From positions 20,313-84,312 of the forward strand of contig CALXJG010000001.1 of the NCBI GenBank assembly GCA_944388565.1: 64,000 nt of DNA, written 5' to 3'. Every line of letters starts with the position of its first letter. Position 1 is the first letter of the stretch. This document shows positions 10,395 through 60,827 of the stretch, one piece after another. Source of the stretch: an uncultured Clostridia bacterium (lineage in GTDB: Bacteria > Bacillota > Clostridia > TANB77 > CAG-465). Both the position numbers and the translations under genes were made by a program. Under the pieces are notes generated by a model. It ran no database searches. It was given only the letters and a program-made list of their open reading frames with translations, and was not told the DNA's origin.

Positions 10395-10418
10395 AGCTCT
10401 AATTTAGAGCTTTTTTCT
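10395..10418 (+). terminator. rho-independent terminator
   Basis: agctcta-att-tagagct then TTTTTT. Confidence 0.6.
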
Positions 10419-10512
10419 TTTATTTGAATAAAAGTTTGTAAGATTACATAAGATGTGATATAATAGTTTAAAATACAAAAATCCAAAAATAATTTTTAAG
10501 GAGGAATTTTTT

Positions 10513-15372: not shown

Positions 15373-15578
15373 TAGAATTAAACTAACAACTTTGCATCTT
15401 AGTTTGTTGTTAACTACACGTATTAGGATTTGAGCTTTGTCAAAAAACATAGAATTAGTAGAAGGGAGATTTGAAAATAAATTTTCTTTCTTTATTTCTC
15501 TTATCTTTTTAATAAATTGAATAGATAAGAGTTACAAAATTATAGTAAATGGAATGGTATTAATTGAGTAAAAAATAA

Positions 15579-15728
15579 AGTAGAATTCGTTTCAGTGAAG
15601 CCAAAATAAAAGAACTCACAGCAGCCAAATCAAGATGTATTCCTTTTGAACAAGAACACATAGATGACAAATGTGTATGTTGTGGTAAAAAAGCAGATAA
15701 GATGGTAGTATGGGGAAGGCAATATTAA
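15579..15728 (+). pseudogene. 3' gene remnant (49 codons) resembling C-terminal zinc-binding tail of archaeal-type prolyl-tRNA synthetase
   Basis: translation [49 protein letters not shown]; Cys cluster and terminal Tyr; no start/RBS, upstream stop at 15576. Confidence 0.35.
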
Positions 15729-15790
15729 AAAACTAAATGATAAAAGGTATTGCAATGAAAAAGAAAATAATTATGTTAGAAGAGGTTGCT

Positions 15791-15846
15791 AAAAAAAAGA
15801 GGCACAACTTGAAATAATTTCGAGTTGTGCTTAAGCTTATTTTTAA
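15791..15846. terminator. bidirectional rho-independent terminator between proS-like remnant and rluA-family gene
   Basis: A-run, hairpin gcacaact-tgaaataatttcg-agttgtgc, T-run. Confidence 0.65.
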
Positions 15847-15859
15847 TTGTAACATTCCC

Positions 15860-16774
15860 TTATAGGTGATTAATGATTAGATTTAACATATCATCTGGTA
15901 TAGGAGCTTGTATCTTAATAAACTTATTAGTTATAGGATGAAAAAAAGATACTTCTTTACAGTGTAGAGCTTGTCTAGATATAAGCTTCCTAATGTTAGG
16001 TATGTTGTATTCATTTGCATATAAATCATCACCAAGTAATACATGACTAATTGAACTCATATGAACTCTAATTTGATGTGTTCTTCCGGTATGCAATATT
16101 ATTTTTAAAATTGAATAATTATTTATATAATCTCTTTTTAAAGTATAGTATTCTGTTTTAGCATAATCTCCATTTTCATTTACTTCCCTTAATATTATGG
16201 TATTATCTTTTCTTGCTATATTTTTTTCTATTATATCATGTTCTTTTTTTACAATCCCATTTACAATACAAAGATACTCTTTATATAGTTTTACTTCTTC
16301 TTTTTTCCTAATAAATAATTCTTGTATATATTTATTCTTTGCAAATATACAAATACCAGATGTATCTTTATCAAGTCTAGTAATTATATGAATTCCTTTT
16401 ATACCTTTTTCTTCAAGATAATATGCTACAATATTTGCAAGTGTGTTATCATAATTTCCACTACTTGGATGAACAGGCATATGTGCTGGTTTATTTACTA
16501 CTAGTAAATATTCATCTTCAAAAAGTATGTTAGGTTTTTCATTAACCAATTTAAATTTATCTGAAAATTTATTTTTTTCACTTGGGATTATAACTTTAAC
16601 TTCATCATTTTCTTTTAGTATATAATTTATAAAAGTTATTTTACCATTTACTAATATACCACCGCTTTCTTTTAGTCTAGTAAGTAATATATTAGAAATG
16701 TATAATCTTTCTTTTAATATTTCTTTTAGTTTCTTTCCATTATCATTTGTACTTGCTATATAGTTTAATTCCAC
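15860..16774 (-). CDS. RluA-family 23S rRNA pseudouridine synthase (RluD-like)
   Basis: HTGRTHQIRVHM catalytic motif, S4-like N-terminus. Confidence 0.8.
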   Translation of the reverse strand: MELNYIASTNDNGKKLKEILKERLYISNILLTRLKESGGILVNGKITFINYILKENDEVKVIIPSEKNKFSDKFKLVNEKPNILFEDEYLLVVNKPAHMPVHPSSGNYDNTLANIVAYYLEEKGIKGIHIITRLDKDTSGICIFAKNKYIQELFIRKKEEVKLYKEYLCIVNGIVKKEHDIIEKNIARKDNTIILREVNENGDYAKTEYYTLKRDYINNYSILKIILHTGRTHQIRVHMSSISHVLLGDDLYANEYNIPNIRKLISRQALHCKEVSFFHPITNKFIKIQAPIPDDMLNLIINHL

Positions 16775-16858
16775 TTACTTCACCATAACTATTATATCAG
16801 ATCAAGTCAAGTTGAAAAATACTTAAAATTATTATATAATATACAAAGTGAGGAATTT

Positions 16859-17605
16859 ATGGAAAAAGAAAGAATAGATGATTTAGGAATAGATAATCTA
16901 AAGATAATTCAAAACAAAGATTATTTTTGCTTTGGTATAGATAGCGTCTTACTTGCAAATTTTGTTGTATCGAATAATAACAGAAATGTGATTGTTGACT
17001 TATGTTCTGGAAGTGGTGTTATTCCTGTAATAATATCAGCAAAGAAAAAATACTCAAAAATATTTGGAGTCGAATTACAAGATGAGATGTATGATTTGCT
17101 AAAAAGAAATATATCTTTAAACTCTTTAGAAGATAAAATTATACCAATACATGATGATATAAAAAGCATAGAAAAAATAAGAAAAAAAGTAATTGAGGTT
17201 ACTGGTAATGGAGCGATTGATATTATTGTATGTAACCCACCATATAAAAAAACTAAAACAGGAATAAGTAATCCAAATAATGTTAAGTATATTGCAAGAC
17301 ATGAAATTATGTGTAATCTTGAAGATGTTTTTAAAACAGCATCTTTACTTTTAAACAATAAAGGGAAGTTATATATTGTACATAAACCTGAAAGGTTAGT
17401 AGATTTACTTGAAATTGCAAGAAGATATAAACTAGAAGCAAAAAGGCTTAAATTAGTACAACCAAACTTAGAATTAAAGCCAAGTATTGTTTTAATTGAA
17501 TATGTAAAAAATGGTGGAAATGAAATAATTGTTGAAAAGCCAATTATAGAATATACAGAAAGTGGAGAATATACTAAGGAAATATATGATATATATGGTA
17601 TGTAA
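16859..17605 (+). CDS. tRNA (adenine37-N6)-methyltransferase-like SAM-dependent MTase (YfiC/TrmN6 family)
   Basis: NPPY motif (IVCNPPYKK), GSG SAM-binding motif, size 248 aa. Confidence 0.65.
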   Translation: MEKERIDDLGIDNLKIIQNKDYFCFGIDSVLLANFVVSNNNRNVIVDLCSGSGVIPVIISAKKKYSKIFGVELQDEMYDLLKRNISLNSLEDKIIPIHDDIKSIEKIRKKVIEVTGNGAIDIIVCNPPYKKTKTGISNPNNVKYIARHEIMCNLEDVFKTASLLLNNKGKLYIVHKPERLVDLLEIARRYKLEAKRLKLVQPNLELKPSIVLIEYVKNGGNEIIVEKPIIEYTESGEYTKEIYDIYGM

Positions 17606-17663
17606 GAATTGCAAAAATAACATGTTTATTATATAATTTAGCTATAAATTAGGAGAATTTGAA

Positions 17664-18524
17664 ATGGAAAAAGATAAAAAAGGAACGTTATATATTGTGG
17701 GGACTCCAATTGGGAATCTTGGAGATATAACTATAAGAGCAATTGAGACTTTAAAAAGCGTGGATGTAATACTTGCTGAGGATACAAGACAAACTTTGAA
17801 GCTTTTAAATCACTTTAATATACAAAAGCATTTAGTTAGTTATCATAGACATAATGAAGATGAAAAAATAAAAAATGTAGTGGATTTTTTAGATTCAGGA
17901 AAAGATTTAGCTTTAGTTTCTGATGCCGGTATGCCAGTTATATCTGACCCAGGACAAAACTTAATAAAATATTTAGTTGCAAATAATTATAATATTGTAA
18001 CTATTCCTGGTGTTACAGCAGTTATAACAGCTATTGTAAAAAGTGGATTAGATTCAACCAGATTTACATTTGAAGGCTTTTTATCTATTAACAAAAAGCA
18101 AAGAAAGCAAAGATTAGAAAGTCTAAAAAATGAAGAAAGAACTATGGTTTTTTATGAGGCGCCACATAAGTTACTTGCAACTTTAAAAGATATGTATGAA
18201 GTATTTGGTAAAAGAAATATATGTATAGCAAGAGAACTTACAAAACTTCATGAAGAGTATATACATACAACTTTTGAAGAGGCAATTTCAAAAATAGAAC
18301 AGTTTGGTATAAAAGGTGAAATTGTTTTACTTATAGAAGGAAAAGATTTAAGTGTATTAGAACAAGAAATAAAAGAAAAACAAAATAAAATTGACTCTGT
18401 AACCTTAGTAAAAGAATATATGTCAAAAGGTATTAGTAAAAAAGAGGCAATTAAACAAGTAGCCAAACAAAAAGGTGTTACTAAAAACGAAGTCTACCAA
18501 GAATGTATAGATATAAAGGAGTAG
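17664..18524 (+). CDS. rsmI: 16S rRNA (cytidine1402-2'-O)-methyltransferase
   Basis: GTLYIVGTPIGNLGDITIRAIETLKSVDVILAEDTR tetrapyrrole-methylase fold typical of RsmI. Confidence 0.85.
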   Translation: MEKDKKGTLYIVGTPIGNLGDITIRAIETLKSVDVILAEDTRQTLKLLNHFNIQKHLVSYHRHNEDEKIKNVVDFLDSGKDLALVSDAGMPVISDPGQNLIKYLVANNYNIVTIPGVTAVITAIVKSGLDSTRFTFEGFLSINKKQRKQRLESLKNEERTMVFYEAPHKLLATLKDMYEVFGKRNICIARELTKLHEEYIHTTFEEAISKIEQFGIKGEIVLLIEGKDLSVLEQEIKEKQNKIDSVTLVKEYMSKGISKKEAIKQVAKQKGVTKNEVYQECIDIKE

Positions 18525-18525
18525 T

Positions 18526-19152
18526 ATGAAGGAACAAGAGTTAAATAGATTAAAAAATATGCTTGAAATTGAAGATAAACTTTATTCTGAAGGATATAAT
18601 TTTGTATGTGGTGTAGATGAAGCAGGAAGAGGACCTCTATGTGGACCAGTTGTAGCTGCTGCTGTAATACTCCCTAAAGATGAATATATAGAAGGTGTAA
18701 ATGATTCAAAAAAGCTTACTGAGAAAAAAAGAGAAAAATTATATGATGATATAATGAAAAAAGCTGTTGCCGCTAGCATTGGTATTAGTGATGTTGATGT
18801 TATAGAAAAAGTTAATATTTTAAATGCAACAAAACTTGCAATGAAACAAGCAATAGAAAAATTAAGTATTAAACCAGATTATGTATTAATAGATGGTAAT
18901 CAAATGATAGATATTAATATAAAAGCAGAAACTGTAGTATCTGGAGATGCAAAGTCTGAATCAATTGCTGCAGCTTCAATTATAGCTAAGGTTACAAGGG
19001 ATCGTATGTTAATAGAATTTGATAAAAAATATCCAGAGTATGGATTTGCAAAACATAAGGGGTATGGAACAAAATCACATATTGAAGCGATACAAAAATA
19101 TGGACTAACAGATATACATAGACCAAGCTTTTGCAAAAAGTTTGTAAAATAA
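18526..19152 (+). CDS. rnhB: ribonuclease HII
   Basis: GVDEAGRGPLCGPVVAAAVIL motif. Confidence 0.9.
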   Translation: MKEQELNRLKNMLEIEDKLYSEGYNFVCGVDEAGRGPLCGPVVAAAVILPKDEYIEGVNDSKKLTEKKREKLYDDIMKKAVAASIGISDVDVIEKVNILNATKLAMKQAIEKLSIKPDYVLIDGNQMIDINIKAETVVSGDAKSESIAAASIIAKVTRDRMLIEFDKKYPEYGFAKHKGYGTKSHIEAIQKYGLTDIHRPSFCKKFVK

Positions 19153-19163
19153 AGGAGGATATA

Positions 19164-19919
19164 ATGAAATTAATATCATGGAATGTAAATGGATTAAGAG
19201 CTTGTATTACAAAAGGATTTTCTTTATTTTTTAAATCAATAGATGCAGATATTTTTTGTATACAAGAAACAAAAATGCAAGAAGAACAAGCAAAAGAAAT
19301 AGAGTATGAAGGCTATTATAAGTATATGAACAGTGCCGAAAAAAAAGGTTATTCAGGTACAGCTATTTTTACTAAAATAATGCCTATTAATGTATCGTAT
19401 GGAATAGGTATAGAAGAACATGATAAAGAAGGAAGAGTAATAACCCTTGAATTTGATAAGTTTTTCTTAGTTAACTGCTATACACCAAATTCTAAACGTG
19501 AGCTTGAAAGACTTGCATATAGAAAGATATGGGAAGATGAATTTAGAAATTATCTAATTAAATTAGATAAAGTAAAACCAGTTATATTATGTGGGGACTT
19601 AAATGTAGCACATAAAGAAATTGATTTAAAAAATCCATCTACTAATCATCATAATGCTGGGTTTACAGATGAAGAAAGAGAGAAGATGACTAAACTTTTA
19701 GAAAGTAATTTTACAGATACTTTTAGATATTTATACCCAGATAAAAAAGATGCATATTCATGGTGGTCATATATGTTAAAATCAAGAGAAAGAAATATAG
19801 GGTGGAGAATCGATTATTTTATAGTATCAAATAGCATAAGAGATGAAATAAAAGATGCAATAATACATAGTGAAGTATTAGGTAGTGATCACTGCCCTAT
19901 TGAACTAGATATATTTTAA
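19164..19919 (+). CDS. xth: exodeoxyribonuclease III
   Basis: MKLISWNVNGLRA..., AAGGAGG RBS 19152-19158; ORF-track start 19131 is upstream leader. Confidence 0.9.
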   Translation: MKLISWNVNGLRACITKGFSLFFKSIDADIFCIQETKMQEEQAKEIEYEGYYKYMNSAEKKGYSGTAIFTKIMPINVSYGIGIEEHDKEGRVITLEFDKFFLVNCYTPNSKRELERLAYRKIWEDEFRNYLIKLDKVKPVILCGDLNVAHKEIDLKNPSTNHHNAGFTDEEREKMTKLLESNFTDTFRYLYPDKKDAYSWWSYMLKSRERNIGWRIDYFIVSNSIRDEIKDAIIHSEVLGSDHCPIELDIF

Positions 19920-19979
19920 TATACTATTGCAAAACTGTAAATAATATAGTAAAATAAAATAAATTTGGGAGATGATGTA

Positions 19980-21371
19980 ATGTTTTCTAAGAGTAATGAA
20001 AATTTATATAATGAATTAAAAAAAAGAAAAAAGGATAATAATTTAATAACGGCTTCTGATATTGATGAAATGACAAGAAACACATCAGATGAAAATATGT
20101 CTATGTTACTTGACTATTATGAAGAAAAGACGGGTAAAGATTTCTTTAGTGATACTAATGAAGAGTTTACTAAGAAGGAGAATATTGAAGAAGAGATAAA
20201 TAAAGCTGAAATAGAGGAAGCAAATAGTAAAGTAGCAGGTGAAAATGATTTAGTTGTAGATCAAAAAGTAAAAGCTGAAATTGAAAAAGAAGAGGAAGAA
20301 AAGAAAAGACCTTTAACTGAAAATGAAAGACTTGCTATATTGCTTAAAGCACAATTTCTTGCTAATTTAGAAAGATATACATCTAATGTATTAAAAGCAC
20401 AAAATGCTCAAATAGCAAGAAATAGTTTTGCTATGGAAGATAAGATTAATACAAGGGTAGTATTAGAAAGAGCATATGGTGACTCTAGAGCAGTCGCATA
20501 TCAAAATGTCACAGGTAAATCATTAATGGAAGATCCAGAAGTTAAAGAGGCTGTTAAAGATTGTGAGTCTAAATTAATTACTGGAAATAAAGTTATAAAT
20601 CAAAACATGGAAAAAGATATAGCAAGAGTAAATGAGTTAGAAGAAAGAATTAGATACATAAAAGATAAAATTTCTGAACTTTCTGCAAAAGCAAATCAAA
20701 AAGATAATAACGAATTTGAATTGGAAATGGAAAATTTATCTAAGGAGTTAAACGATGCTGAATTAGAGTTAAGAGGATTAACTCCAGATGCGGTTGATTT
20801 AGAACGTGATTTAGAGATAGAAAATAGAAATAATGAATTTGAAGATAGAAGAGATTTAGGTTACTATAACAGTACTGTTCCACATTATGAATTAGTAGAA
20901 AAAGATGCAAGGGAAATGAAAGATGGCTATAGTAATAAAGATGAAATGGTAGAAGAGTTTGAGGAAAAAAATATTGAAGATAGTAAGACTGAAATTTATT
21001 ATACTTCTGAAACTCTAGATAATATAGAAAAATTAATAGATAATGCTACAAATATGGGTGATATAGAAAATATATATTTAGCATTGCAACAAATTGATAA
21101 TAGTATATCAATAGATGAATTTGAAGATATACAAAAAGACACTGGTGTTAAAGCAAGTAATGAAGAAGTAAAATCTGATCGCCAAGAAAATGATATGCAA
21201 AGTGAAAAAGAATTTAGTGATGAAGTAGGTGCTTCAGCTCAGGATAGAAGAGTTGTTGCAGCAAAAGATTGCTTAAGAGAACATGTAAATGAACTTAGAG
21301 GAAGATTAAATATTCAAAAAGGACAAACAAAAGAACAAGAGCTAAGTAGTAAAAGTAGATCAATGTATTAA
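19980..21371 (+). CDS. hypothetical acidic coiled-coil protein (E/K/D-rich, no TM)
   Basis: ATG 19980 after GGGAGA; low-complexity charged composition, no recognisable domain. Confidence 0.5.
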   Translation: MFSKSNENLYNELKKRKKDNNLITASDIDEMTRNTSDENMSMLLDYYEEKTGKDFFSDTNEEFTKKENIEEEINKAEIEEANSKVAGENDLVVDQKVKAEIEKEEEEKKRPLTENERLAILLKAQFLANLERYTSNVLKAQNAQIARNSFAMEDKINTRVVLERAYGDSRAVAYQNVTGKSLMEDPEVKEAVKDCESKLITGNKVINQNMEKDIARVNELEERIRYIKDKISELSAKANQKDNNEFELEMENLSKELNDAELELRGLTPDAVDLERDLEIENRNNEFEDRRDLGYYNSTVPHYELVEKDAREMKDGYSNKDEMVEEFEEKNIEDSKTEIYYTSETLDNIEKLIDNATNMGDIENIYLALQQIDNSISIDEFEDIQKDTGVKASNEEVKSDRQENDMQSEKEFSDEVGASAQDRRVVAAKDCLREHVNELRGRLNIQKGQTKEQELSSKSRSMY

Positions 21372-34698: not shown

Positions 34699-36960
34699 AT
34701 GAAAATTGCTAAAGTTTTGATTAATACGTCTGTAAAGAGTTTAAATAAAGTATATGATTATCTTGTGCCAGAAAAAATGGAACAGGATATTAAAATAGGT
34801 AAGCGAGTTTTAGTTTCATTTGGTAAAGGCAGAAGTGATGAAGAAGCAATAATTGTAAAAATAGAAGAAAAAACAGCTGAGGAATTAAAAAGTTATAATT
34901 ACAAGTTAAAGGAGATAATTGAGATTCTTGACGAAGTATCATATATAAATGAGTCAAGATTAAAGCTTGCAAAATATATTTCTTTTTTGTATTTTTGTAA
35001 TGTATATGATGCATTAAAGTTAATGTTACCTCCCGGTACAAAATCTAAAAATACCAAAAAAAGCTTAAATACTAAGCAAAATACGTTAGTAAAGCTTATA
35101 AAAAATCAAGAAGAGATTATGGAAGATATAGAAAATAATGTTATAACTAGTGCTAAACATATAAAACTATTAACTTTTTTAATGTACAATGATTATGTGT
35201 TAATAAATGATATTATCGATGGTTTAGAGATATCTAGACAGGTTATAAATACAGTAGAAAAAAATGGATATATTACTTTAGAAAAAGTGGACATAAAGCC
35301 AGATTTTTTAACAGAATTTAAAGTTTCACCTACAGAGCCTAAAAAGCCAACACCCGAACAAGAATTTGCAATTGATAGAATAAATAGTTATATAGATAGT
35401 AATGAATACAAACAATGTCTATTGTTTGGAGTAACTGGAAGCGGAAAAACTGAAGTGTATTTACAAGTAATAAAAAGAGTTTTGGAAAAAGGAAAAAGGG
35501 CAATAGTACTTGTTCCTGAAATTTCTCTTACTTACCAGACAGTTAATAGGTTTGTATCAAGATTTGGAAATAATATAGCAATTCTTCATAGTAAAATGAC
35601 AGTTTCTAAAAGAAAAGAAGAGTATAAAAGAATAAAAAATGGTGAAGTTGATATAATAATAGGAGCTAGATCTGCTATTTTTGCACCAGTTGATAATTTA
35701 GGTCTTGTAATTATAGATGAAGAACATGATGGAAGTTATTATTCTCAGACTACTCCTAAATATTCAACTAAAGAAGTTGCTTCATATATATGTAAAGAGA
35801 ATAATGCAACTTTAATACTTGGTTCTGCGACACCAGAAATATCATCATTTTATAAAGCACAAGCTGGTATAATGGATATAGTTACAATGGAAAATAGACC
35901 AGGTACTGCTGTTATGCCAAAAATTGAAATTGTAAATATGAAATATGATAGAGTTTTAGGAAATACCTCTGATATTAGCTTAAGATTAAAAGAAGAAATT
36001 AAGAAAAATATTGATAAAAATGAGCAGACGATGATATTTTTAAATAGAAGAGGATATCTTTCATATTTAAGATGTAATGAATGTTCGTATATATTTAAGT
36101 GCCCAAATTGTGATGTTGCTTTTGTTTATCATAAAACTAGTAATTTATTACATTGTCATTATTGTTCACATGTTGAAAGAAATGTACATAAATGTCCTTG
36201 TTGTGGAAGCGAAAATATATCTAGTAGTACAATTGGTACACAAAGGTTAGAAGAAGAATTAAAGGAAATATTTCCAGGAGTTACCACTTTAAGAATGGAT
36301 GCTGATACAACTGTTGCTAAAGATTCACATCAAAAAATATTAGATAAATTTAAAAATGAGAATATAAATATATTAATTGGGACACAAATGATAAGTAAAG
36401 GACATGATATTGAAAATGTTACCCTAGTTGGAATATTAGGTGTAGATACAATGCTTGGAATGGATGACTATTTGTCATCTGAAAGAGCTTTTTCAAATAT
36501 TTCACAAGTATCAGGAAGAGCTGGACGAGCAAAACTTCCAGGAAGAGTATTAATCCAAACTAATGATCCAGATAATTATATATTAAATGCAGTTATAAAT
36601 AATTCATATATTGAATTTTATGAAAAAGAGATTAAGCATAGAAAAAAATTTGGTTATCCTCCATTTATAGATATTGTGTTATTTGAGATAAGTGGAAGAA
36701 ATTTTTATTTAGTAAAGTCTGAAATAGATAGATTATACAATATTTTAAATAGTGAAAATACAGGTATATATAAAGTGTTTAATCCTAAGGCACCATTTAT
36801 ACAGAAAATTAATAATAAGTTTAGAGTTAATATAATTGTAAAGACTAAATTAAATACTAATAGTTATAATAAGTTATATGAGAAAATAAATATATTTAGT
36901 AAAACAAAGAAAAATGGCGTTAATATGGTAGTTACAAGAAACCCTATATTTATAGGATAG
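34699..36960 (+). CDS. priA: primosomal protein N' (replication restart helicase)
   Basis: Walker A GVTGSGKTEVY, DEEH, Cys-rich Zn-finger (CNECSY...CPNCD...CHYCSH...CPCCGS). Confidence 0.9.
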   Translation: MKIAKVLINTSVKSLNKVYDYLVPEKMEQDIKIGKRVLVSFGKGRSDEEAIIVKIEEKTAEELKSYNYKLKEIIEILDEVSYINESRLKLAKYISFLYFCNVYDALKLMLPPGTKSKNTKKSLNTKQNTLVKLIKNQEEIMEDIENNVITSAKHIKLLTFLMYNDYVLINDIIDGLEISRQVINTVEKNGYITLEKVDIKPDFLTEFKVSPTEPKKPTPEQEFAIDRINSYIDSNEYKQCLLFGVTGSGKTEVYLQVIKRVLEKGKRAIVLVPEISLTYQTVNRFVSRFGNNIAILHSKMTVSKRKEEYKRIKNGEVDIIIGARSAIFAPVDNLGLVIIDEEHDGSYYSQTTPKYSTKEVASYICKENNATLILGSATPEISSFYKAQAGIMDIVTMENRPGTAVMPKIEIVNMKYDRVLGNTSDISLRLKEEIKKNIDKNEQTMIFLNRRGYLSYLRCNECSYIFKCPNCDVAFVYHKTSNLLHCHYCSHVERNVHKCPCCGSENISSSTIGTQRLEEELKEIFPGVTTLRMDADTTVAKDSHQKILDKFKNENINILIGTQMISKGHDIENVTLVGILGVDTMLGMDDYLSSERAFSNISQVSGRAGRAKLPGRVLIQTNDPDNYILNAVINNSYIEFYEKEIKHRKKFGYPPFIDIVLFEISGRNFYLVKSEIDRLYNILNSENTGIYKVFNPKAPFIQKINNKFRVNIIVKTKLNTNSYNKLYEKINIFSKTKKNGVNMVVTRNPIFIG

Positions 36961-37055
36961 TATATTTTGTCATTTATGCTTTAATTTTTTAAGTTTACTT
37001 GAAAATTATTTTGTTTTATTATACAATTATTATATGGTTAAAGGGGTTTGATAAT

Positions 37056-38669
37056 ATGAATATTACTTTTTATGGTGCTGCTAGGTCTGTAACAGGCTCA
37101 TGTCATTTAGTAGATGCATGCGGGAAAAAATTTTTAATAGATTGTGGTATGTTTCAAGGAAAACTTACAGATCAAATATTAAATTATGAAGATTTTCCTT
37201 TTGATATAAATTCTATAGATTTTGTTGTATTAACACATGCTCATATAGATCATAGTGGGAGAATACCGAAGTTATATAAACAAGGTTATACAGGAACTAT
37301 ATATGCAACAAGTGCTACTTTAGATTTATGTAGTATAATGCTTGCAGATAGTGGACATATACAAGAAAAGGAAATAGAATGGGTAAATAGAAAAAGAAAA
37401 AGGGCAGGAAAAAAAGAAAATGAAGCTATGTATACTGCTCAAGATGGTATTGATTCTTTAAAATTATTTAAAGGTGTCGAGTATAATGAGGAAGTTATTA
37501 TAGATGACAATATATCTTTTAAATTTGTTGATGCAGGTCATATGTTAGGATCAGCAATTGTAGAGTTATATGTTAATGAAGACGGTAAAAAACAAAAAAT
37601 CGTATTTTCTGGTGATTTAGGTAATCTAAATATGCCAATAATAAATGATCCAACATATATTGATGGTACTGATTATTTAGTAATGGAGTCAACTTATGGA
37701 GATAGACTACATGGAGAAATTAAAGACCAATCAAGTGAGCTTATAAATATAATGATTGATACTTATGAAAGAGGCGGAAATTTAATAATACCTTCATTTG
37801 CTGTAGGAAGGACACAGGAAATACTATATGAAATAAATAAATATGCGGCAACAACAGAAATTGGTGCGAAACTTGCAAAAATACCTGTATATGTTGATAG
37901 TCCTCTTGCTGTAAGTGCAACTAAGATATTTGAAGAAAATCCAGAATATTATGATGAAGATGCACTAAGATATCTTTTAAAAGGAGACAATCCATTAGAG
38001 TTTTCTAATTTACATTTTGTAGAGTCTTCAGAAGAGTCTAAGGCTTTAAATGAAGATAAATCTCCAAAAGTTATAATATCTGCTAGTGGTATGTGTGAAG
38101 TTGGTAGAATAAAACATCACTTAAAACATAATTTATATAGACCTGAAAGTACAATTCTTTTCGTAGGTTTCCAAGCCGAAGGAACTTTGGGTAAAAGAAT
38201 CTTAAGCGGTGAAAGAATTGTAAAAATATTTGGTGAAGAAATAGCTGTAAATGCTGAAGTAAGATATTTGGATGCTTTCTCTGGTCATGCGGATAAAAAT
38301 GGGCTTTTAGAGTGGATTAGAAAAATGAATAAAAAACCAAGTAATATATTCTTAGTACATGGAGAATATAGTGGTCAACAGGCGTTAAAAGCTTCTATTG
38401 AAGAAGAATTTGGAATAAAAACAATAATTCCAGACTTTGAAGAAACTTATACAGCAGATGGTAAATTACTTGAAGGTGTAATGCCTAAATATCAATCTAC
38501 TAGATTTGATATACTTGAAATGTTATCTTATCTAAAACAAGATGTTGATGATGTATCTAATACAGTAAAGGCTGAGATTAAGAATAATCCAGATGAAAAT
38601 GATTTATTAAAAATACTAAGAAAACTTGAAGAAGTAAAAGCAGCTTTAGTAAATGTAAGAGAAAAATAA
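37056..38669 (+). CDS. MBL-fold beta-CASP RNA-processing exonuclease (COG1236 / TTHA0252-like)
   Basis: MNITFYGAARSVTGSCHLV..., HAHIDHSGRIP metallo-beta-lactamase motif; ATG 37056 after AAAGGGG. Confidence 0.7.
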   Translation: MNITFYGAARSVTGSCHLVDACGKKFLIDCGMFQGKLTDQILNYEDFPFDINSIDFVVLTHAHIDHSGRIPKLYKQGYTGTIYATSATLDLCSIMLADSGHIQEKEIEWVNRKRKRAGKKENEAMYTAQDGIDSLKLFKGVEYNEEVIIDDNISFKFVDAGHMLGSAIVELYVNEDGKKQKIVFSGDLGNLNMPIINDPTYIDGTDYLVMESTYGDRLHGEIKDQSSELINIMIDTYERGGNLIIPSFAVGRTQEILYEINKYAATTEIGAKLAKIPVYVDSPLAVSATKIFEENPEYYDEDALRYLLKGDNPLEFSNLHFVESSEESKALNEDKSPKVIISASGMCEVGRIKHHLKHNLYRPESTILFVGFQAEGTLGKRILSGERIVKIFGEEIAVNAEVRYLDAFSGHADKNGLLEWIRKMNKKPSNIFLVHGEYSGQQALKASIEEEFGIKTIIPDFEETYTADGKLLEGVMPKYQSTRFDILEMLSYLKQDVDDVSNTVKAEIKNNPDENDLLKILRKLEEVKAALVNVREK

Positions 38670-44128: not shown

Positions 44129-45160
44129 ATGGGAAGATATGAAGATATTATAAAAGATATAAATATATTACTTGCTGATGATGATGAAGATTATATGATG
44201 ATGACTTATTCCTTTTTAAAGCAATTAGGATATAATGTAGATAAAGCTTATGATGGTAAAACAGCTTTAGAAATGTTACAAACAAATAAATATCAAATAA
44301 CTTTATTAGACTATTTTATGCCAGAATTAAATGGTGAAGAAGTTATAAATAAAATAAGAGAGACTAATAAAGAGATAATTATAATATTGCAGACTGGATT
44401 TTCTGGACAAAAGCCACCAATTGAAACAATGAAAAAACTAAATATTCAAAATTATCATGATAAAACAGAAGGTATTGATAGATTAAATTTAGAGCTTATA
44501 TCTGCTGTTAAAATATTTAATCAACAAAGTGAAATAGAATTAACTAAATATAAAACAAGAGCAATTGGTGAACTTATATTTGGAGTTGCACAGGAAATAA
44601 AGTCAAATCTTCTTTCTGTTGGTGCAAGTCTTGAATATACAAATATGTTAATACAACAAAAAAATGAGACTTTTAGCAAAGACCATTTAGAAAAATTAAA
44701 TAAATATTATACTGGAAATAAAGAATCATTACAAAGGGTTGATAAGGTTTTATCTTCAATAATAAATCAGTCTACTGAAAATACTGATTATATTATGGAT
44801 GATAAAGATGTTATGGATATAATATCGCTAGTATTAAAAAATCAATCAAGAACTAGTGGAATAAATTTAAATACTAAAATTTCTTTAAAAGCTGCAAGTT
44901 ATATAAAAGGTGGAATAAATGATGCAATATTTATAATCTGCGAGATTATAAAAGAATTGATGGAGTTAGAAGAAAAAGGAAAAAGTATTGATTTAGTATT
45001 AACTGAAGATGAAAGTTTTTGGTATTTTAATATAAGCAGTGATAAGGTAAATAGTTTACCACCTTCACAATATTATATATTAAATAAGGTAGTAATATCT
45101 ATGCCTGGAACTAATATATATAAAGATGAAAATAAAATAGTTTTATCAATAAATAAATAA
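44129..45160 (+). CDS. response-regulator receiver domain protein with uncharacterised C-terminal domain
   Basis: ILLADDDEDYMMMTYSFLKQLGYNV...LLDYFMPELNG REC motifs. Confidence 0.65.
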   Translation: MGRYEDIIKDINILLADDDEDYMMMTYSFLKQLGYNVDKAYDGKTALEMLQTNKYQITLLDYFMPELNGEEVINKIRETNKEIIIILQTGFSGQKPPIETMKKLNIQNYHDKTEGIDRLNLELISAVKIFNQQSEIELTKYKTRAIGELIFGVAQEIKSNLLSVGASLEYTNMLIQQKNETFSKDHLEKLNKYYTGNKESLQRVDKVLSSIINQSTENTDYIMDDKDVMDIISLVLKNQSRTSGINLNTKISLKAASYIKGGINDAIFIICEIIKELMELEEKGKSIDLVLTEDESFWYFNISSDKVNSLPPSQYYILNKVVISMPGTNIYKDENKIVLSINK

Positions 45161-45223
45161 CTTGCAAATAAAAATAATTTGTAATATAATATAAATGTAT
45201 AAAACAAAAGAAAAGGTGAAATT

Positions 45224-45277
45224 ATGGTAACAAAAGGACGTACAAACAGCATCGAACTACACACACACACACACAAG
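45224..45277 (+). other. micro-ORF MVTKGRTNSIELHTHTHK (17 aa) whose 3' half is an (AC)7 repeat in the loop of a hairpin
   Basis: AGGTGA RBS 45210-45215, ATG 45224; hairpin gaactac-(ac)7a-gtagttc. Confidence 0.3.
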
Positions 45278-45426
45278 TAGTTCTTTATTAAAAAATGAAA
45301 AAATAGAAGAGGTAAAAATTGTAAAAAAAGAAAAATATATAGAGAAGCTAGTTTAAAATAGAAATATTTTAAGCTGGCTTTTTGTACGTAAAAAACCATA
45401 ATGAACCAAAAGAAGGAGGAAAAAAA

Positions 45427-46287
45427 GTGAAAGAAAAGAAAGGAATAAGTCTAATAACATTAGTAATAACAATAATAGTAATAATAATCCTTGCAGCAGC
45501 AGTAATATTAACATTAAATAACAATAACCCAATAGAAAATGCAAAAGAAGCAACATTTAAATCAGATGTAAAAACATTACAATCAGAATTAACAATGTAT
45601 ATAGCAAAACAAACAGCAGATACATTAGGAGGATTTAAAGCAGAAGAATTAAACTTAAGTGAAACAACAACCCCAAAGATAGAAGAAATATTAACAAGTA
45701 TAAAAAGTAGTGGATTAGAAGGTAAAGTAGAAGTACAAAATGGAAAGTTAGTATATACAGGAACAATAGAAAAAGAAGAAAAATGGTTTAAAGAGATAAT
45801 GGGAGAAAGTGTAGTGACACCACCAGAAGAGGAAGATAAAATACCAATAGATAAAGAAACAGAAAAAATAGGATATTATGCAGATGTAGATGGAAATGGA
45901 ACCGTAGATGGAGTAATATATGCAGATTTAGCTTTTTCTAAAAGTGGGCAATGGACTAATGCAAATGGAGCATATTCTTACACAGCAAAAACAAATACAA
46001 AAGATTATTATATAAGTCAAACAAATTATAAAGGAGATTTTGGAACAAAAGATGTATTAACAGCAATAGATGGAGATGGAGAAGATAGATTTTATGTAAT
46101 GGCATTAAAATCATTTAATGATGGAAATGGATTAGAGTATTTTTGGTATGAAGATGCACATGGAAATATGAGTGATTATGCAACAGCGACTTCGATAGAC
46201 TTTGGAACTGGAAGAAGAAATACAGAGACAATGGTGAAAAAGTGGAATAATAGCGCATATGGTGCGCAAAATGCTGGTAAACGGTGA
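45427..46287 (+). CDS. pilin/pseudopilin-like protein with non-canonical class-III-like signal (MKEKKG/ISLITLVITIIVIIILAAAVI) and C-terminal DUF1566; reading frame broken (+1) near 46259-46287, continues 46259-46558
   Basis: GTG 45427 after AAGGAGG; hydrophobic N-terminal helix; frame-2 ORF 46259-46558 encodes GWFVPSRGEWGAF...YWSSSQYS...YVRLS DUF1566 signature. Confidence 0.55.
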   Translation: MKEKKGISLITLVITIIVIIILAAAVILTLNNNNPIENAKEATFKSDVKTLQSELTMYIAKQTADTLGGFKAEELNLSETTTPKIEEILTSIKSSGLEGKVEVQNGKLVYTGTIEKEEKWFKEIMGESVVTPPEEEDKIPIDKETEKIGYYADVDGNGTVDGVIYADLAFSKSGQWTNANGAYSYTAKTNTKDYYISQTNYKGDFGTKDVLTAIDGDGEDRFYVMALKSFNDGNGLEYFWYEDAHGNMSDYATATSIDFGTGRRNTETMVKKWNNSAYGAQNAGKR

Positions 46288-46558
46288 TATATATGACGCC
46301 TTAGATGTGTGGGGAGTAATCCAAAATAAAGTAGCAGAAGGTTGGTTTGTTCCATCAAGAGGTGAATGGGGAGCATTTGGAGATAATTTAAGAATAACAG
46401 AAAATAATTCATTACCCGGACTTACTTACAACTATTGGTCATCGTCTCAATATTCTGATGCTCTTGTGTGGTACATGAGGTCTAGTACTAGGGAGATGAG
46501 ATACTACGCAATAGGTACTAACGGCACATTTTATGTGCGTTTAAGTACAACTTTCTAA
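46259..46558 (+). pseudogene. DUF1566 C-terminal segment, out of frame (+1) relative to upstream pilin-like ORF
   Basis: DUF1566 hallmark W-VPS--EW.....YWSS.......W.........YVR..; lacks own RBS and N-terminal part of domain. Confidence 0.5.
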
Positions 46559-46582
46559 TTTTGTAAATATTTAAAAGTTAAG

Positions 46583-46612
46583 GAGTTAAAGTTTTTCTTT
46601 AACTCTTTTTTC
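46583..46612 (+). terminator. rho-independent terminator; also the likely target hairpin of the downstream group II intron
   Basis: gagttaaag-ttttt-ctttaactc + TTTTTT. Confidence 0.7.
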
Positions 46613-46613
46613 T

Positions 46614-48478
46614 GTATGATGGGCATGTCATAAATCTAGGGTGAAAGTCCCAAGAGACGTATTTGTCGCGAACTCAATAGCAACTTGCAAAGCATAAACC
46701 AGTAATGGAGTGTGAAAAGAAGCAATAGCGAAATCGTGGCTCTATGAATAAGAACTTGATATTAAGGCTTATTAGACGGATAAGTTGCCAGAATACAACG
46801 AAGTCCAAAAGACAAACGTAAATCTAATGAGTAAATCAAGAGAGTAAACGAGGAAAGAGTTATGGCTTATCCCATGAGGTCCTATAAACGAATCAGTAGT
46901 AACAACGAATTATAGGAAGTCAGCAGAGGTCATAGTAGGAACTATTATCCGAAGGACCGAACAATTTATAAGACTATGAAAATCTTGAAATCTCTTGCAA
47001 TTAATCAGAATAAATAAAGATGATAGGTTTAAGCGTATCTTAAATGGGTAATCCAAAAGATGGTATTGCAAGATAACGAAAAGAAAGGAAGTAGACAAGC
47101 TATGAAAGAAGATATTATTACAAAAATACTTGACCGAAACAATTTAAATGAGGCCTATAAAAATGTTAAAGCAAATAAAGGAGCAAGTGGAATTGACGAT
47201 TTATCAATTGAGGAAACAGCAGAATACATAAGACAAAATAAGGCTACCATTGTATGGCAATTGTATAATCGTAAATATCAACCACAGCCAGTGCGTAGAG
47301 TAGAAATACCAAAACCAAATGGTGGAATAAGGAAATTGGGTATACCAATAGTGCTAGACAGAATTATCCAGCAAGCAATGGTGCAAGTATTAGCTCCAAT
47401 GTTTGAACCATATTTTAGTGAATACAGTTATGGATTTAGACCAAAAAGAAGTTGTCAACAAGCTATAATTAAAGCACTAGAATACATGAACGACGGGTAT
47501 GAATGGATAGTAGACATTGACCTAGAGAAATTCTTTGATAATGTGCCACACGACAGATTATTAAGACTAGTAAGTGATGTAGTAAAAGATGGAAATGTAG
47601 TTTCATTGGTAAATAAATTTCTTAAAGCAGGAGTAATGATAAAAGGTAATTATGAAGAGACTACAATAGGAACACCACAAGGAGGACCTTTATCACCATT
47701 ACTATCAAATATTATGCTTAATTTACTAGATAAGGAATTAGAGGCAAGAAATTTACATTTTACAAGATATGCAGACGATACAATAATTTTAGTTAAAAGT
47801 GAAAAGGCAGCAAATAGAATAATGACATCAATAACAAAATTTATTGAAAATAAACTAAAACTAAAAGTTAATATAACAAAAACAAAAGTATGCACACCTT
47901 GGAATTTAAAATATCTAGGTTTTGGATTTTGCAAAATGAAGAAATGGGAATGTATACCCCATAAAGAAAGTAAAAAGAAATTTCAAAGAGCATTAAAACG
48001 ACTAACAAATAGAAGTAAAAATATGTCACTAGACAGAAGAATAGAACAATTAAATTGGACTATTAGAGGTTGGGTAAATTATTTTAGGATTGGAAAAATG
48101 AAGAAATTTCTAGAACGCACAGATGAACACTTACGTGCAAGAATTAGAGTAATTATTTGGAAACAGTGGAAAACACCAAAGACCCAAATAAAGAACCTAG
48201 TCAAATGTGGACTTTCACTAAATAATGCTAGAGGATTAGCCTATTGTAGAAGAGGATATACATTTGTAGCACATTCACAAATTTTGCAAACGGCTATTTC
48301 GAAAGAAAGACTACAAAAACCAAATAATAATCTAAAACGCAGAGGATTAGTCCTTGCTTTAGATTACTATCTAGCTTGAAATAAACTTATAAATTGAACC
48401 GCCCATTGCCGAACGGCACGATGTGGTGGTGTGAGAGGGGATGAAAATTTTATTTAATAAAATTTTCTACTCTACTCG
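46614..48478 (+). mobile_element. group II intron (bacterial class C-like, endonuclease-less IEP); boundaries approximate
   Basis: begins right after terminator T-run with gtatgatgggcatgtcataaatctAGGGTGaAAGTCccAAG (cf. Ll.LtrB 5' GTGCGCCCAGATAGGGTGTTAAGTCAAG); RT/maturase ORF in domain IV; candidate domain V 48399-48429 with CGC triad; perfect 11-bp hairpin 48443-48467. Confidence 0.75.
47102..48379 (+). CDS. group II intron reverse transcriptase/maturase (IEP), no HNH endonuclease domain
   Basis: RT motifs (GIDDLSIEE, PKPNGGIRKLGIP, FRPKRS, IVDIDLEKFFDN, GTPQGGPLSPLLSNI, YADD), domain X (RGWVNYFRIGKM); alternative ATG at 47060. Confidence 0.85.
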   Translation: MKEDIITKILDRNNLNEAYKNVKANKGASGIDDLSIEETAEYIRQNKATIVWQLYNRKYQPQPVRRVEIPKPNGGIRKLGIPIVLDRIIQQAMVQVLAPMFEPYFSEYSYGFRPKRSCQQAIIKALEYMNDGYEWIVDIDLEKFFDNVPHDRLLRLVSDVVKDGNVVSLVNKFLKAGVMIKGNYEETTIGTPQGGPLSPLLSNIMLNLLDKELEARNLHFTRYADDTIILVKSEKAANRIMTSITKFIENKLKLKVNITKTKVCTPWNLKYLGFGFCKMKKWECIPHKESKKKFQRALKRLTNRSKNMSLDRRIEQLNWTIRGWVNYFRIGKMKKFLERTDEHLRARIRVIIWKQWKTPKTQIKNLVKCGLSLNNARGLAYCRRGYTFVAHSQILQTAISKERLQKPNNNLKRRGLVLALDYYLA

Positions 48479-48539
48479 ATTAATAGTTGAAAAAAATTAT
48501 TACATACTATATAATAAAATATATAGATGTGGTGAGATT

Positions 48540-57526: not shown

Positions 57527-57599
57527 CAAAAATTAAAACCATTTATTGAACTTAGATAAAATATATATTATAATAAAAATAAGTTTATATGGTGAAATT

Positions 57600-58094
57600 A
57601 TGAATAAAAAAATATTTATATTATTAATTGTATTAATTTTAATTATTATATTGCTTAGTGTAGTTTTTATAATTTTTTGCAACAAAAAAAACGAAGGAAA
57701 TGAAATTGCCGCAATCAATTTGTATGAAGAATTAATTGATAAGATTTTAGAAAATAGTGTATATGAAAGCGATAATTATATATCAATAGATACGACTTCT
57801 TTTATAGATCCATTAAATAACAACATTCTTTCTGAAAACGCACAAACAGAGATATTAGATTATTGTAGAAAATATAACAAAGTGATTTACAAAAGTAATG
57901 GTATAGATTTAAAAGATGAGTCCTTAGAAGGAGTTAAAATCACTTTTAATATTAGAAAGAAGAAAAAAGAAACAATAAACATTGATGTTAATTGTTATAG
58001 ATCTAATTTAGGTAGTGGTGGTAGGGAGTATATTTGTACTTATAGTAATAATACATGGAATATATCAAATGGTACTACTGTATGGAGTTCTTAA
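57600..58094 (+). CDS. hypothetical signal-anchored protein
   Basis: ATG 57600 after GGTGAA; N-terminal TM IFILLIVLILIIILLSVVFIIF. Confidence 0.45.
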   Translation: MNKKIFILLIVLILIIILLSVVFIIFCNKKNEGNEIAAINLYEELIDKILENSVYESDNYISIDTTSFIDPLNNNILSENAQTEILDYCRKYNKVIYKSNGIDLKDESLEGVKITFNIRKKKKETINIDVNCYRSNLGSGGREYICTYSNNTWNISNGTTVWSS

Positions 58095-59469: not shown

Positions 59470-59901
59470 ATGTTAAGTAACAAAAGAGGTATATCGTTAA
59501 TAGTACTTGCAATTACTATAGTAATAATTACTATTTTAGCTGTTGCAGTAATATTATCTTTTAACAGTAATAATCCTATAGATAATGCTTATGAGGCTAC
59601 TTTTAAATCTAATATAAGGAATATGTATGAAGAACTAAATGTATATTTTTCAGATTTGGATAATGAGTCTTATGGAGAATTTGATCCATCCAAATTTTCA
59701 GCAGATTTTTCTAGTGTGTCATATACTGGAAGAGGAGTTGAAATTGAAGAAAAAAACATAACAGAAATAATAACTGTATTAAATCAATTACCAGATTATA
59801 GAGATGCTGTTTTTATAATTAACGGAAAATTAACATTAGATTCAACTAGATTTTCTGAAGAACAAATGAACTGGGCAAGAGAAGTGTTAGAAAATAAATA
59901 A
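59470..59901 (+). CDS. pilin/pseudopilin-like protein, paralog of 45427 gene N-terminal domain (MLSNKRG/ISLIVLAITIVIITILAVAVI...NNPIDNAYEATFKS)
   Basis: GAGGGGGA RBS, ATG 59470; ~55-aa N-terminal region closely similar to 45427 product. Confidence 0.55.
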   Translation: MLSNKRGISLIVLAITIVIITILAVAVILSFNSNNPIDNAYEATFKSNIRNMYEELNVYFSDLDNESYGEFDPSKFSADFSSVSYTGRGVEIEEKNITEIITVLNQLPDYRDAVFIINGKLTLDSTRFSEEQMNWAREVLENK

Positions 59902-59932: not shown

Positions 59933-60827
59933 TTATATTATTGTTCCTCCATTTACATGTATTGTTTGTCCTGTTACATATTTTGAATCATTTTCACATG
60001 CTAAATATAAATATGCAGGAGCAACTTCAAAAGGTTGACCGGCCCTTTTTAATGTAACATCACAACCGAAGTTTTCTACATCTTCATCTGTAAAAGAACC
60101 ATATATAAGGGGTGTCCATATTGGACCTGGTGCTACAGCATTTACCCTTATCTTTTTACATGCCAAAGATTTTGCCATTGACTTTGTAAAATTTGTAATA
60201 GCAGCTTTACTTGCAGAATAATCAATTAATCTTTCGTTCCCTTGATATGAAGTTACAGATGATGTATTTATTATACATGAACATTCTTTTAAATGTGGAA
60301 GTACTGCTTTTGTAAGATAGAAGTATGAAAAGAAGTTTGTTTCAAATGTGCGTAATAATTGATCAGTAGTTATATCTAGTATACTATTTTGTGGTGCTTG
60401 ATATCCACAGTTATTTACTAGAATATCAATTTTACCATATTCATTAATTACTTTATCTACTATTTCTTTAGATGTTTCTTCTTTTCTTAAATCTCCTGGT
60501 AGTAATAAGCACTTTCTACCATAATTTTCGATATATTTTTTAGTCTCATTTGCATCATCATTTTCATTTAAATATGAAATTGCTATATCACAACCTTGTT
60601 TTGCAAATAGTATGGCAACAGCTTTACCAATTCCGCTATCACCACCAGTAATTAAAGCAACCTTATCTTTTAGTTTATTACCAGTTTTCCCCTCTTTGTT
60701 ATCAAATATTGGTAATGGAGTAGCTGAACTTTCAGAACATGGTTGTTTATCTTGATGTTGTTTTGGAAATCTAATTTCGATTTCTTCTTTTTTTCTTTTT
60801 TACCTAAACTTGGTATTTCTGGATACA
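59933..60827 (-). pseudogene. SDR-family oxidoreductase (YhdF/general-stress-protein-39-like), reading frame broken in T7/A7 homopolymer at 60787-60800
   Basis: ATG (60827-60825) + MYPEIPSLGKKEKK in one frame; rest (…IEIRFPKQHQDKQPCSESSATPLPIFDNKEGKTGNKLKDKVALITGGDSGIGKAVA…NGGTII) in -1 frame; inserting one A in A7 run restores a continuous 298-aa SDR. Confidence 0.7.

Follow-up and report, generated by a model that had tools for sequence, protein, structure and literature searches.

Can a protein without glutamate at position +5 of its mature chain (Glu5) belong to the type IV pilin class? The question is raised by two genes, here called A and B, in a 64-kb stretch of the genome of an uncultured Clostridia bacterium (contig CALXJG010000001.1; the whole stretch is called the window below), which is low-GC chromosomal DNA (27.3% G+C) with sporulation and housekeeping genes. 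Both products begin like proteins with a class III signal peptide, that is, a hydrophilic leader ending in Gly or Ala followed by 20-25 hydrophobic residues, in which Glu5 is present "often, but not always" (PMC10191384). An earlier note, made from the letters of this DNA, had proposed that the two proteins have the first-helix architecture of type IV pilins or pseudopilins with a non-canonical start. We confirmed this observation, and our analysis supports the pilin reading, in which both proteins represent an unannotated, Glu5-less variant of the type IV pilin class. Judging from sequence and from gene context in relatives, we consider it likely that they are pilin-class proteins that are cut after an invariant Gly and handed to a PilB/PilT/PilC machine.

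Results

Genes A and B share an N-terminal module

Gene A (45427-46287, forward strand) starts with GTG, 7 nt after the motif AAGGAGG, and continues out of frame in 46259-46558 after a +1 frameshift; gene B (59470-59901, forward strand) starts with ATG and is preceded by AGAGGA. With a slash at the predicted cleavage position, their products begin MKEKKG/ISLITLVITIIVIIILAAAVILTLNNNNPIENAKEATFKS and MLSNKRG/ISLIVLAITIVIITILAVAVILSFNSNNPIDNAYEATFKS. Both have the pattern M-x-K-[KR]-G/ISLI[TV]L, a hydrophobic helix of 24 residues, a kink at NNP and an amphipathic stretch after it. The start G/ISLI[TV]L, without Phe at +1 and with Thr or Val at +5, had been described correctly for both open reading frames (ORFs): the residue at +5 is Thr in gene A and Val in gene B. 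The further claim that the first ~55 residues are near-identical was right about the homology and wrong about its degree. From Gly to Ser, 30 of 41 residues are identical (73%), with 34 identities over the first 60 residues, and the homology is longer than claimed: it spans ~135 aa, all 143 aa of gene B aligning with residues 1-134 of gene A (36% identity by BLASTP, E 1e-26), which rules out a chance resemblance. Recent gene conversion between the two genes was likewise ruled out, as 11 of the 18 identical residues in the segment from Gly to +25 use different codons. Gene B is therefore the N-terminal module alone, and gene A the module followed by a PPEEE linker and a C-terminal domain. A regular-expression scan of the window found no further copy of the module.

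The module defines an unnamed family in gut Clostridia

An exhaustive profile search over 1.84 billion representatives found the module in 4,649 clusters at E<=1e-3 and in 1,153 at E<=1e-10. It stood at the N-terminus in all 150 matches listed, in proteins of 105 to 1,236 aa; gene A used as a query matched 2,878 proteins. A word-indexed homology search with gene B returned 3 proteins only, and it was the exhaustive profile search that made the family visible. Neither a Pfam domain nor a source name was attached to any of the matches listed in the profile search or the gene A search, scans of the two proteins against Pfam and NCBIfam gave nothing above threshold, and literature searches with motif strings of the module turned up no description. 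All genome matches were to metagenome-assembled genomes (MAGs) of uncultured Clostridia or Bacillota of animal and human gut origin, Clostridium sp. CAG:465 among them. Each has many copies, no fewer than 16 in JAQUWH01 and no fewer than 13 in JAEWRE01, and tandem arrays are frequent. A scan of viral contigs found no relatives, so the family is not phage-borne. Judged from these searches, the family is specific to a lineage of uncultured low-GC gut Clostridia and has no name in databases.

Conservation was counted in 143 cluster representatives (clusters at 50% identity). Gly at -1 is present in all 143, Ile+1 in 137, Ser+2 in 142, Leu+3 in 143, Leu+6 in 141, Thr+9 in 141, Asn+28 in 132 and Pro+29 in 120. 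Position +5 is occupied by Val (115), Thr (13), Ile (7), Met (4) or Leu (2). The leaders are 3-22 residues long (median 7) with a mean net charge of +2.8, and position -2 is Lys or Arg in 110 representatives. Across 126 distinct DNA versions of the segment from Gly to +25, 51% of identical residues are encoded by different codons, Ser+2 by both TCN and AGY; the conservation of the module is therefore selected at the protein level and does not result from gene conversion.

Proteins of module-only size are common (20 of 145 representatives are under 200 aa). The 75 longer members that we scanned carry BspA-type leucine-rich repeats (LRR; LRR_5), LRR_8, Bsp-like repeats, Ig-like, Flg_new, Laminin_G_3, F5/8 type C, RCC1 propeller and FGE-sulfatase domains behind the module, and by these assignments the cargo is of extracellular binding or adhesin types.

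The module matches the first helix of pilins in register

Both proteins have the class III signal layout, with a hydrophilic leader that ends in Gly (MKEKKG and MLSNKRG) and, directly after it, hydrophobic residues from +1 to +24, within the 20-25 residues usual for pilins. We scored a hidden Markov model (HMM) of the module against the E. coli proteins of the hof and gsp loci, with E-values calculated at proteome size. The best match was GspG (28.2 bits, E 4.5e-7, low bias), with 62 aligned residues, Gly-1 in register, and an alignment covering the leader, the membrane part of the first helix (alpha1N) and its soluble part (alpha1C, A-x-x-A-x-SD...L-x-x-Y). PpdD, GspI, GspH and GspK came next, so that pilins took the top five ranks, and the bitopic controls GspC, GspL and GspM gave E>100. 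In the reverse direction, phmmer with GspG as query retrieved only family members from the 4,409 ORFs of family-bearing genomes. The best match in a profile search of the PDB was the Geobacter PilA-N (E 0.01). These comparisons indicate a significant similarity of the module to a bona fide pilin that goes beyond generic hydrophobicity.

Below threshold, the 40 members compared with domain models matched mainly pilins: TIGR01710 (GspG) in 25, the PpdD-like PRK10574 in 9, PilA in 7 and GspH in 5, with ComG models also among the matches. The scores for the GspG equivalog TIGR01710 itself (17.8 and 13.2 bits) stayed far below its cut-off of 88.85, a gsp context is missing, and the head of the module has no detectable similarity to E. 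coli pilin heads when the module HMM is split. The module is GspG-like in the first helix only. The archaeal model Pilin_N (PF07790) was matched by 2 of the 40 members, with a best E of 0.017, below the cut-off.

AlphaFold gave a model of gene B with a pLDDT of 90.5 from an alignment of 40 sequences; an alignment of 4 sequences gave a useless model (pLDDT 46). The predicted structure has a helix at residues 10-33, the NNP kink and a second helix at 36-66, together a 57-residue long helix, topped by a small, compact head made up of a pair of beta hairpins with two or three short helices. The best pilins in a Foldseek search of the PDB were non-significant, namely C. difficile PilW (TMq 0.41, E 5.5) and PAK pilin (E 7.2). 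The predicted fold is compatible with a pilin and is not decisive. The alpha-1 architecture put forward in the earlier note is thus borne out by the in-register GspG match, by the predicted helix and by the operon context in relatives described below.

In relatives the same N-terminus opens a pilus operon

A metagenome scan brought up two contigs, L155 and L163, in which an operon is opened by a pilin-sized protein with the identical N-terminus KG/ISLIVLVITI. The first gene of L163 encodes 130 aa and begins MNKRKG/ISLIVLVITILVMIILAGVVVVSLQKNNPVEKAKEA. It is followed by a gene for a 146-aa protein, whose L155 counterpart matches only A24_N_bact (PF06750, 8.7e-29), and then by three small pilin-like ORFs, including KEG/MVAIE, which has Glu5, and KRG/ITVTS. 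L155 continues with PilB (T2SSE+MshEN, 4.8e-100), a PilT-like ATPase (a second T2SSE) and PilC (T2SSF). Its pilC is followed, 3.7 kb further downstream, by another family member, which has an FGE-like domain (members in 9836-11538), and the genes of this downstream region also stand ahead of P0199, an LRR-bearing member, in L109 and L182. In relatives, a protein with the G/ISLIV N-terminus takes the place of the pilin in a type IV pilus operon.

The peptidase of these bacteria appears to be split. The A24_N_bact-only protein of the pilus operon (L155 537-971, L163 610-1050) has ~145 aa and four Cys. The catalytic A24 gene encodes a PF01478-only protein of 246-250 aa that lacks the Cys motif (L061 6823-7572, L085-L090), and it stands in a tyrS-yqeG-A24-nfo synteny conserved across related Clostridia. 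By domain content, the prepilin peptidase of the lineage appears to be divided between an N-domain gene and a catalytic-domain gene, and this split A24 enzyme is a concrete candidate for the divergent prepilin peptidase that had been imagined for genes A and B.

In the first 1.35 Mb surveyed around 125 family genes with regular expressions and phmmer for PilB, PilC, PilD and canonical pilins, we found only one A24 gene (in L061, with a family member 2.4 kb downstream of it), one T2SSE fragment (L028) and no general linkage. The L028 fragment is part of a block (14938-20386) located 2.5-10 kb downstream of a family member, in which ParA and ParB are accompanied by a secreted protein of 602 aa, a membrane protein of 129 aa and an ATPase of the T2SSE family. 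The block is probably a mobile element that brings its own secretion ATPase and is not related to the module family.

Alternatives to the pilin reading

Several observations weigh against reading genes A and B as pilin-class proteins. Glu occurs at +5 in none of the 143 representatives. PF07963 (N_methyl) was not matched at E<=1, nor was TIGR02532 or any pilin model at curated thresholds, and FliL models were matched by 17 of the 40 members, as often as some pilin models, which indicates that hydrophobic composition contributes to the sub-threshold matches. The transmembrane and alpha1C parts of the split module HMM were each non-significant alone against E. coli pilins, and Foldseek gave no match in the PDB at E<=0.001. 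As the earlier note had remarked, pilB, pilC and pilD are missing from the window, where phmmer with E. coli HofB, HofC, GspE, GspF and GspO found no homologue; among ~240 family N-termini in ~2.2 Mb of flanking DNA, only those in L155 and L163, and those downstream in L109 and L182, lie beside pilus genes. A MAG can also hold at least 13-16 paralogues, a number that to our knowledge far exceeds every described pilin repertoire. Much of this would suit an uncleaved signal-anchor, either descended from pilins or convergent with them, in which the N-terminus serves as a type II membrane anchor and stalk, unprocessed and outside filaments. The absence of Glu5, the comparable weak matches to FliL single-pass proteins, the lack of a pilin match in Foldseek, the many paralogues with diverse cargo in one genome and the location of nearly all members far from pilus genes, among housekeeping genes or in tandem arrays, are all in its favour. 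Such an anchor nevertheless leaves unexplained why Gly marks the helix boundary in every representative behind leaders of 3-22 residues, and why Ser+2, Leu+3 and Thr+9 are held through synonymous change. Nor does it account for a GspG match that stays in register into the soluble alpha1C, for the same N-terminus at the pilin position of a pilB-pilT-pilC operon, or for a (His-Thr)n insert tolerated in the leader of the member P0126, as would be expected of a discarded peptide. We regard the anchor as unlikely.

The proteins could instead be processed and not polymerised, as archaeal binding proteins are, which is a sub-case of the pilin-class reading and in our judgement somewhat improbable. 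The missing Glu5, as in archaeal class III signal proteins, the large and varied cargo repertoire, the stand-alone catalytic A24 gene in a housekeeping context and the 2 of 40 members that weakly match Pilin_N speak for it. The putative operon pilin, on the other hand, has the same Glu5-less helix, so the absence of Glu5 does not separate assembling from non-assembling members, and pilin-sized module-only proteins are common. Secretion through an ordinary Sec signal peptide cut by signal peptidase I, which we judged by inspecting the sequences, would agree with a positively charged N-region followed by a hydrophobic region. It is nonetheless most improbable, since the hydrophobic stretch of 24-25 residues is too long, no A-x-A-type site is conserved (NNP-I-x-x-A stands there instead), the predicted helix runs on to residue 66, and conservation is highest in the very part that would be discarded. 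A lipoprotein was rejected on sequence, as there is no Cys.

Gene A is a strain-variable cassette behind a putative switch

The features of the two genes are collected in Table 1. The +1 frameshift of gene A, which had escaped the earlier note along with the modular build and the lectin-type domain of the protein, lies near 46270-46287. Intact homologues have 369 aa (P0005) and 378 aa (P0008), and the same frameshifted, truncated allele is present in an independent assembly (P0004/L101), so that the frameshift is not a sequencing error. The out-of-frame 3' part weakly matches Lcl_C (E 0.1) and FISUMP (E 0.008).

Table 1. Positions of the features of genes A and B in the window
Feature	Positions	Strand	Remarks
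Sigma-70-like promoter, TTGCAA-17-TATAAT	45162..45190	+	10/12 matches; consensus match only
Leader ORF MVTKGRTNSIELHTHTHK with (AC)8 tract at 45259-45274	45224..45280	+	Ribosome-binding site AAAGGTGAAA
Predicted intrinsic terminator hairpin (attenuator) between leader ORF and gene A	45342..45383	+	19-bp stem, dG -20.6 kcal/mol, U5
Gene A leader peptide M(V)KEKKG, ending in invariant Gly(-1)	45427..45444	+	Gly in 143/143 cluster representatives
Gene A alpha1N-like hydrophobic helix ISLITLVITIIVIIILAAAVILTL, +1 to +24, Thr at +5	45445..45516	+	In register with GspG G/FTLLEIMVVIVIIGVLASLVV
Gene A pilin-like module, ~134 aa: leader, alpha1N, NNP kink, alpha1C, small head	45427..45830	+	Homologous to all of gene B
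Gene A PPEEE linker and first part of DUF1566/FISUMP-like (C-type-lectin-fold) domain	45831..46287	+	Premature stop after +1 frameshift
Gene A out-of-frame 3' part, 99-aa ORF, variable-region-type lectin-like end (...YWSSSQ...YVRLSTTF)	46259..46558	+	Weak Lcl_C and FISUMP matches
Response-regulator terminator, displaced to 3' side of cassette	46583..46611	+	100% identical to L091 3546-3574, there directly after the regulator gene
Gene B stand-alone pilin-like module, 143 aa	59470..59901	+	Leader MLSNKRG 59470-59490; helix +1..+24 59491-59562, Val at +5

Upstream of gene A, the promoter, which L002 and other loci also keep at the cassette's 5' edge, is followed by a leader ORF with an (AC)n tract and by a terminator hairpin. 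Two of the three frames after the tract stop within 1-6 codons; the present frame is short and stops at 45280, and the long frame would stop at 45354-45356, inside the 5' arm of the hairpin. The leader/terminator layout recurs in L002, L019, L020 (twice), L029 and L051, and the long-frame stop falls inside the hairpin at 7/7 leader-ORF loci from five source sequences (the window, L002 and three MAG contigs). The tract, translated as (His-Thr)n, has 8 units in the window, 11 in L101 and 16 in L002, and 13 of the 34 dinucleotide repeats in 2.2 Mb sit within 400 nt upstream of family genes. We infer from this layout that the region upstream of gene A has the elements of a leader-peptide/terminator switch of the type that controls the Pil1 pilus of Streptococcus gallolyticus, whose phase variation was shown experimentally (PMC3894217). 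There, too, a repeat in the leader ORF sets its length, and a long leader lets ribosomes disrupt the downstream terminator. The two differ in that the repeat here is an (AC)n dinucleotide and not a GCAGA pentanucleotide, the genes controlled would be pilin-like and not a sortase pilus operon, the layout recurs upstream of several family paralogues in different MAGs, and the function in the present case is read from the layout. Since the leader ORF is in the short, terminating frame, the allele in the window is predicted to be OFF; together with the frameshift in the coding region, this makes gene A probably silent and decaying.

Variants of the tract occur elsewhere in the family. Upstream of the paralogue P0029 it is interrupted and locked in the long frame. 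In L064 (4437-4544) an (AC)n tract of 22 units lies within the coding region just before the Gly, out of frame, and P0126 has an in-frame version with an HTHTHTHTHTH leader, so the leader tolerates inserts. Tracts within the coding region would represent a second, translational mode of phase variation.

The lectin-like C-terminal domain of gene A relates it to targets of diversity-generating retroelements (DGRs). The reverse transcriptase (RT) near gene A was considered as a DGR enzyme and rejected: it is a group II intron maturase with a GIIM domain and Rfam group II domains. No template repeat for 46250-46570 was found anywhere in the window. In the homologue P0012 (L001), a 128-nt pair of variable region and template repeat (10821-10948 and 11657-11784) has 15 of 17 substitutions at template adenines and an adjacent RT; by this pattern its 3' end, homologous to the end of gene A, is a proven DGR variable region. 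The gene of P0029 (L102 3242-4395) is followed by bAvd and an RT. By homology, gene A is a relative of DGR targets and not a demonstrated target. DUF1566/FISUMP (CLec2) domains, the class of its C-terminal domain, are variable proteins of known DGRs, such as Legionella LdtA (PMC5758913), which differs in being displayed through a lipoprotein signal, where gene A would use a pilin-like module. Pilin-like modules with DGR-diversified lectin domains seem to be undescribed, apart from a "GspG-type pilin" domain mentioned in passing in PMC11661182.

The cassette of promoter, leader and gene A (45160-46582) sits between the stop codon of a response regulator gene and the terminator of that gene. In ten other contigs of the same species with an identical upstream response regulator (L091-L100), the regulator is followed directly by a metallophosphoesterase gene, without the cassette, and the same cassette is found at a different site in L002. 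Gene A is thus a strain-variable cassette. Directly after the displaced terminator lies a group II intron (46612-48479; Rfam RF02001 and RF01998) whose RT (47060-48379, RVT_1+GIIM) carries the maturase domain, and which is absent from other strains. Bacterial class C introns typically insert next to terminators.

Gain and loss is also seen with whole arrays. In L035 (3270-18198), four family genes lie between homologues of the window genes 34699-36960 (753 aa) and 36999-38669 (556 aa), which adjoin in the window, and a fifth lies just upstream of the pair; by their N-terminal sequence only, the two window genes are a PriA-type helicase and an RNase J-type gene. Comparison of such loci indicates that family arrays appear and vanish at fixed chromosomal sites.

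Gene B is intact. It is near-identical (99% identity) to P0001, which represents a cluster of 30 member sequences in public assemblies, and has an orthologue at 63% identity in a related MAG (L003). An AI-2E-family transporter gene lies 8 nt upstream, and the two are probably co-transcribed. Between gene B and recD2 lies only an 81-aa C-terminal fragment of a short-chain dehydrogenase (59933-60178, reverse strand); the gene is intact, with 275-298 aa, in the strains of L078, L079, L081 and L082, and L080 has the same truncation. At several places, family members have as direct neighbours small proteins (156-182 aa) that carry a membrane helix at the N-terminus (L013 13900-14370 and 18318-18788; L028 9482-9955; window 57546-58094), and one of them weakly matches the archaeal Pilin_N model (E 0.0045).

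Discussion

If genes A and B encode pilin-class proteins, the basic leader would stay in the cytoplasm while the helix inserts through Sec and the signal recognition particle. The prepilin peptidase, split into the A24 N-domain protein and the catalytic A24 protein, would then cut after the invariant Gly, and the mature proteins would join a membrane pool of pilins used by a PilB/PilT/PilC machine like that of L155 and L163. Module-only proteins such as gene B would be filament subunits, and modular proteins such as gene A would be minor or tip subunits that show their binding domain beyond the cell wall. Beyond this, we tentatively suggest, with more doubt than confidence, that low-GC gut Clostridia run a type IV pilus with a Glu5-less major pilin, a split peptidase and a dozen or more interchangeable modular proteins, switched by (AC)n tracts and in some cases hypermutated by DGRs, as a programmable, antigenically variable display of adhesins.

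The module resembles GspG and the type IV pilins (IPR012902) in its basic leader ending in Gly, in the pattern [hydrophobic]-[ST]-L-[IL] at +1 to +4, in an alpha1N of 20-25 residues with Leu+16 and Ala+17, in an alpha1C of the form A-x-x-A-x-x-D...L-x-x-Y and in a pilin-sized head. It differs from them in having Val, Thr or Ile in place of Glu at +5, Ile in place of Phe or Met at +1, neither Gly14 nor Pro22, and an invariant Thr+9 and an NNP kink at +27 to +29. The arrangement of gene A and most members, with an unrelated adhesive or binding domain C-terminal to the pilin module, is that of the modular pilins PilB and PilC of Streptococcus sanguinis (PMC8179133, PMC9934059, PMC6916266), whereas those have a canonical Glu5 and number two per genome within the pil locus, and the present family counts at least 13-16 per MAG, mostly unlinked to machinery and Glu5-less.

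In known pili, the amine at the N-terminus of one subunit is paired with Glu5 of its neighbour, and a Glu5-less subunit caps the tip complex (PMC10191384). The tip-capping minor pilins of the GspK/PilK class thus share the absence of Glu5 with our family, and a place at the filament tip fits the display of a binding domain (PMC10191384). The known systems, however, have one Glu5-less subunit per machine; here the presumed major operon pilin is Glu5-less too, while one minor pilin of the operon has Glu5 (G/MIAAE, G/MVAIE), and GspK has no sequence similarity to the module beyond the helix. The archaeal class III signal proteins of a 2007 study, as recounted in PMC10191384, likewise combine a [KR]-G motif without Glu5 with many non-filament-looking proteins that have diverse extracellular domains. 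The present hosts, in contrast, are Clostridia, and their machine includes PilT together with an A24 N-domain of bacterial type.

Nearly all bacterial major pilins are taken to have Glu5, and current models assign it the task of neutralising the N-terminal amine within the filament core. A large family of bacterial proteins that includes an apparent operon-encoded major pilin with Val in place of Glu5 would put that model to the test. Pilin-finding tools, too, would have to accept a wider range of sequences, as proteins with the module are invisible to PF07963, TIGR02532 and PilFind-type rules. For the organisms themselves, the module family seems to serve as a main way of displaying proteins at the surface of abundant uncultured Clostridia in the human gut. 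Three diversification devices, cassette gain and loss, slipped-strand switching and DGR hypermutation, meet in this one protein family, and such diversification bears on the interactions of these gut Clostridia with host, phage and glycans.

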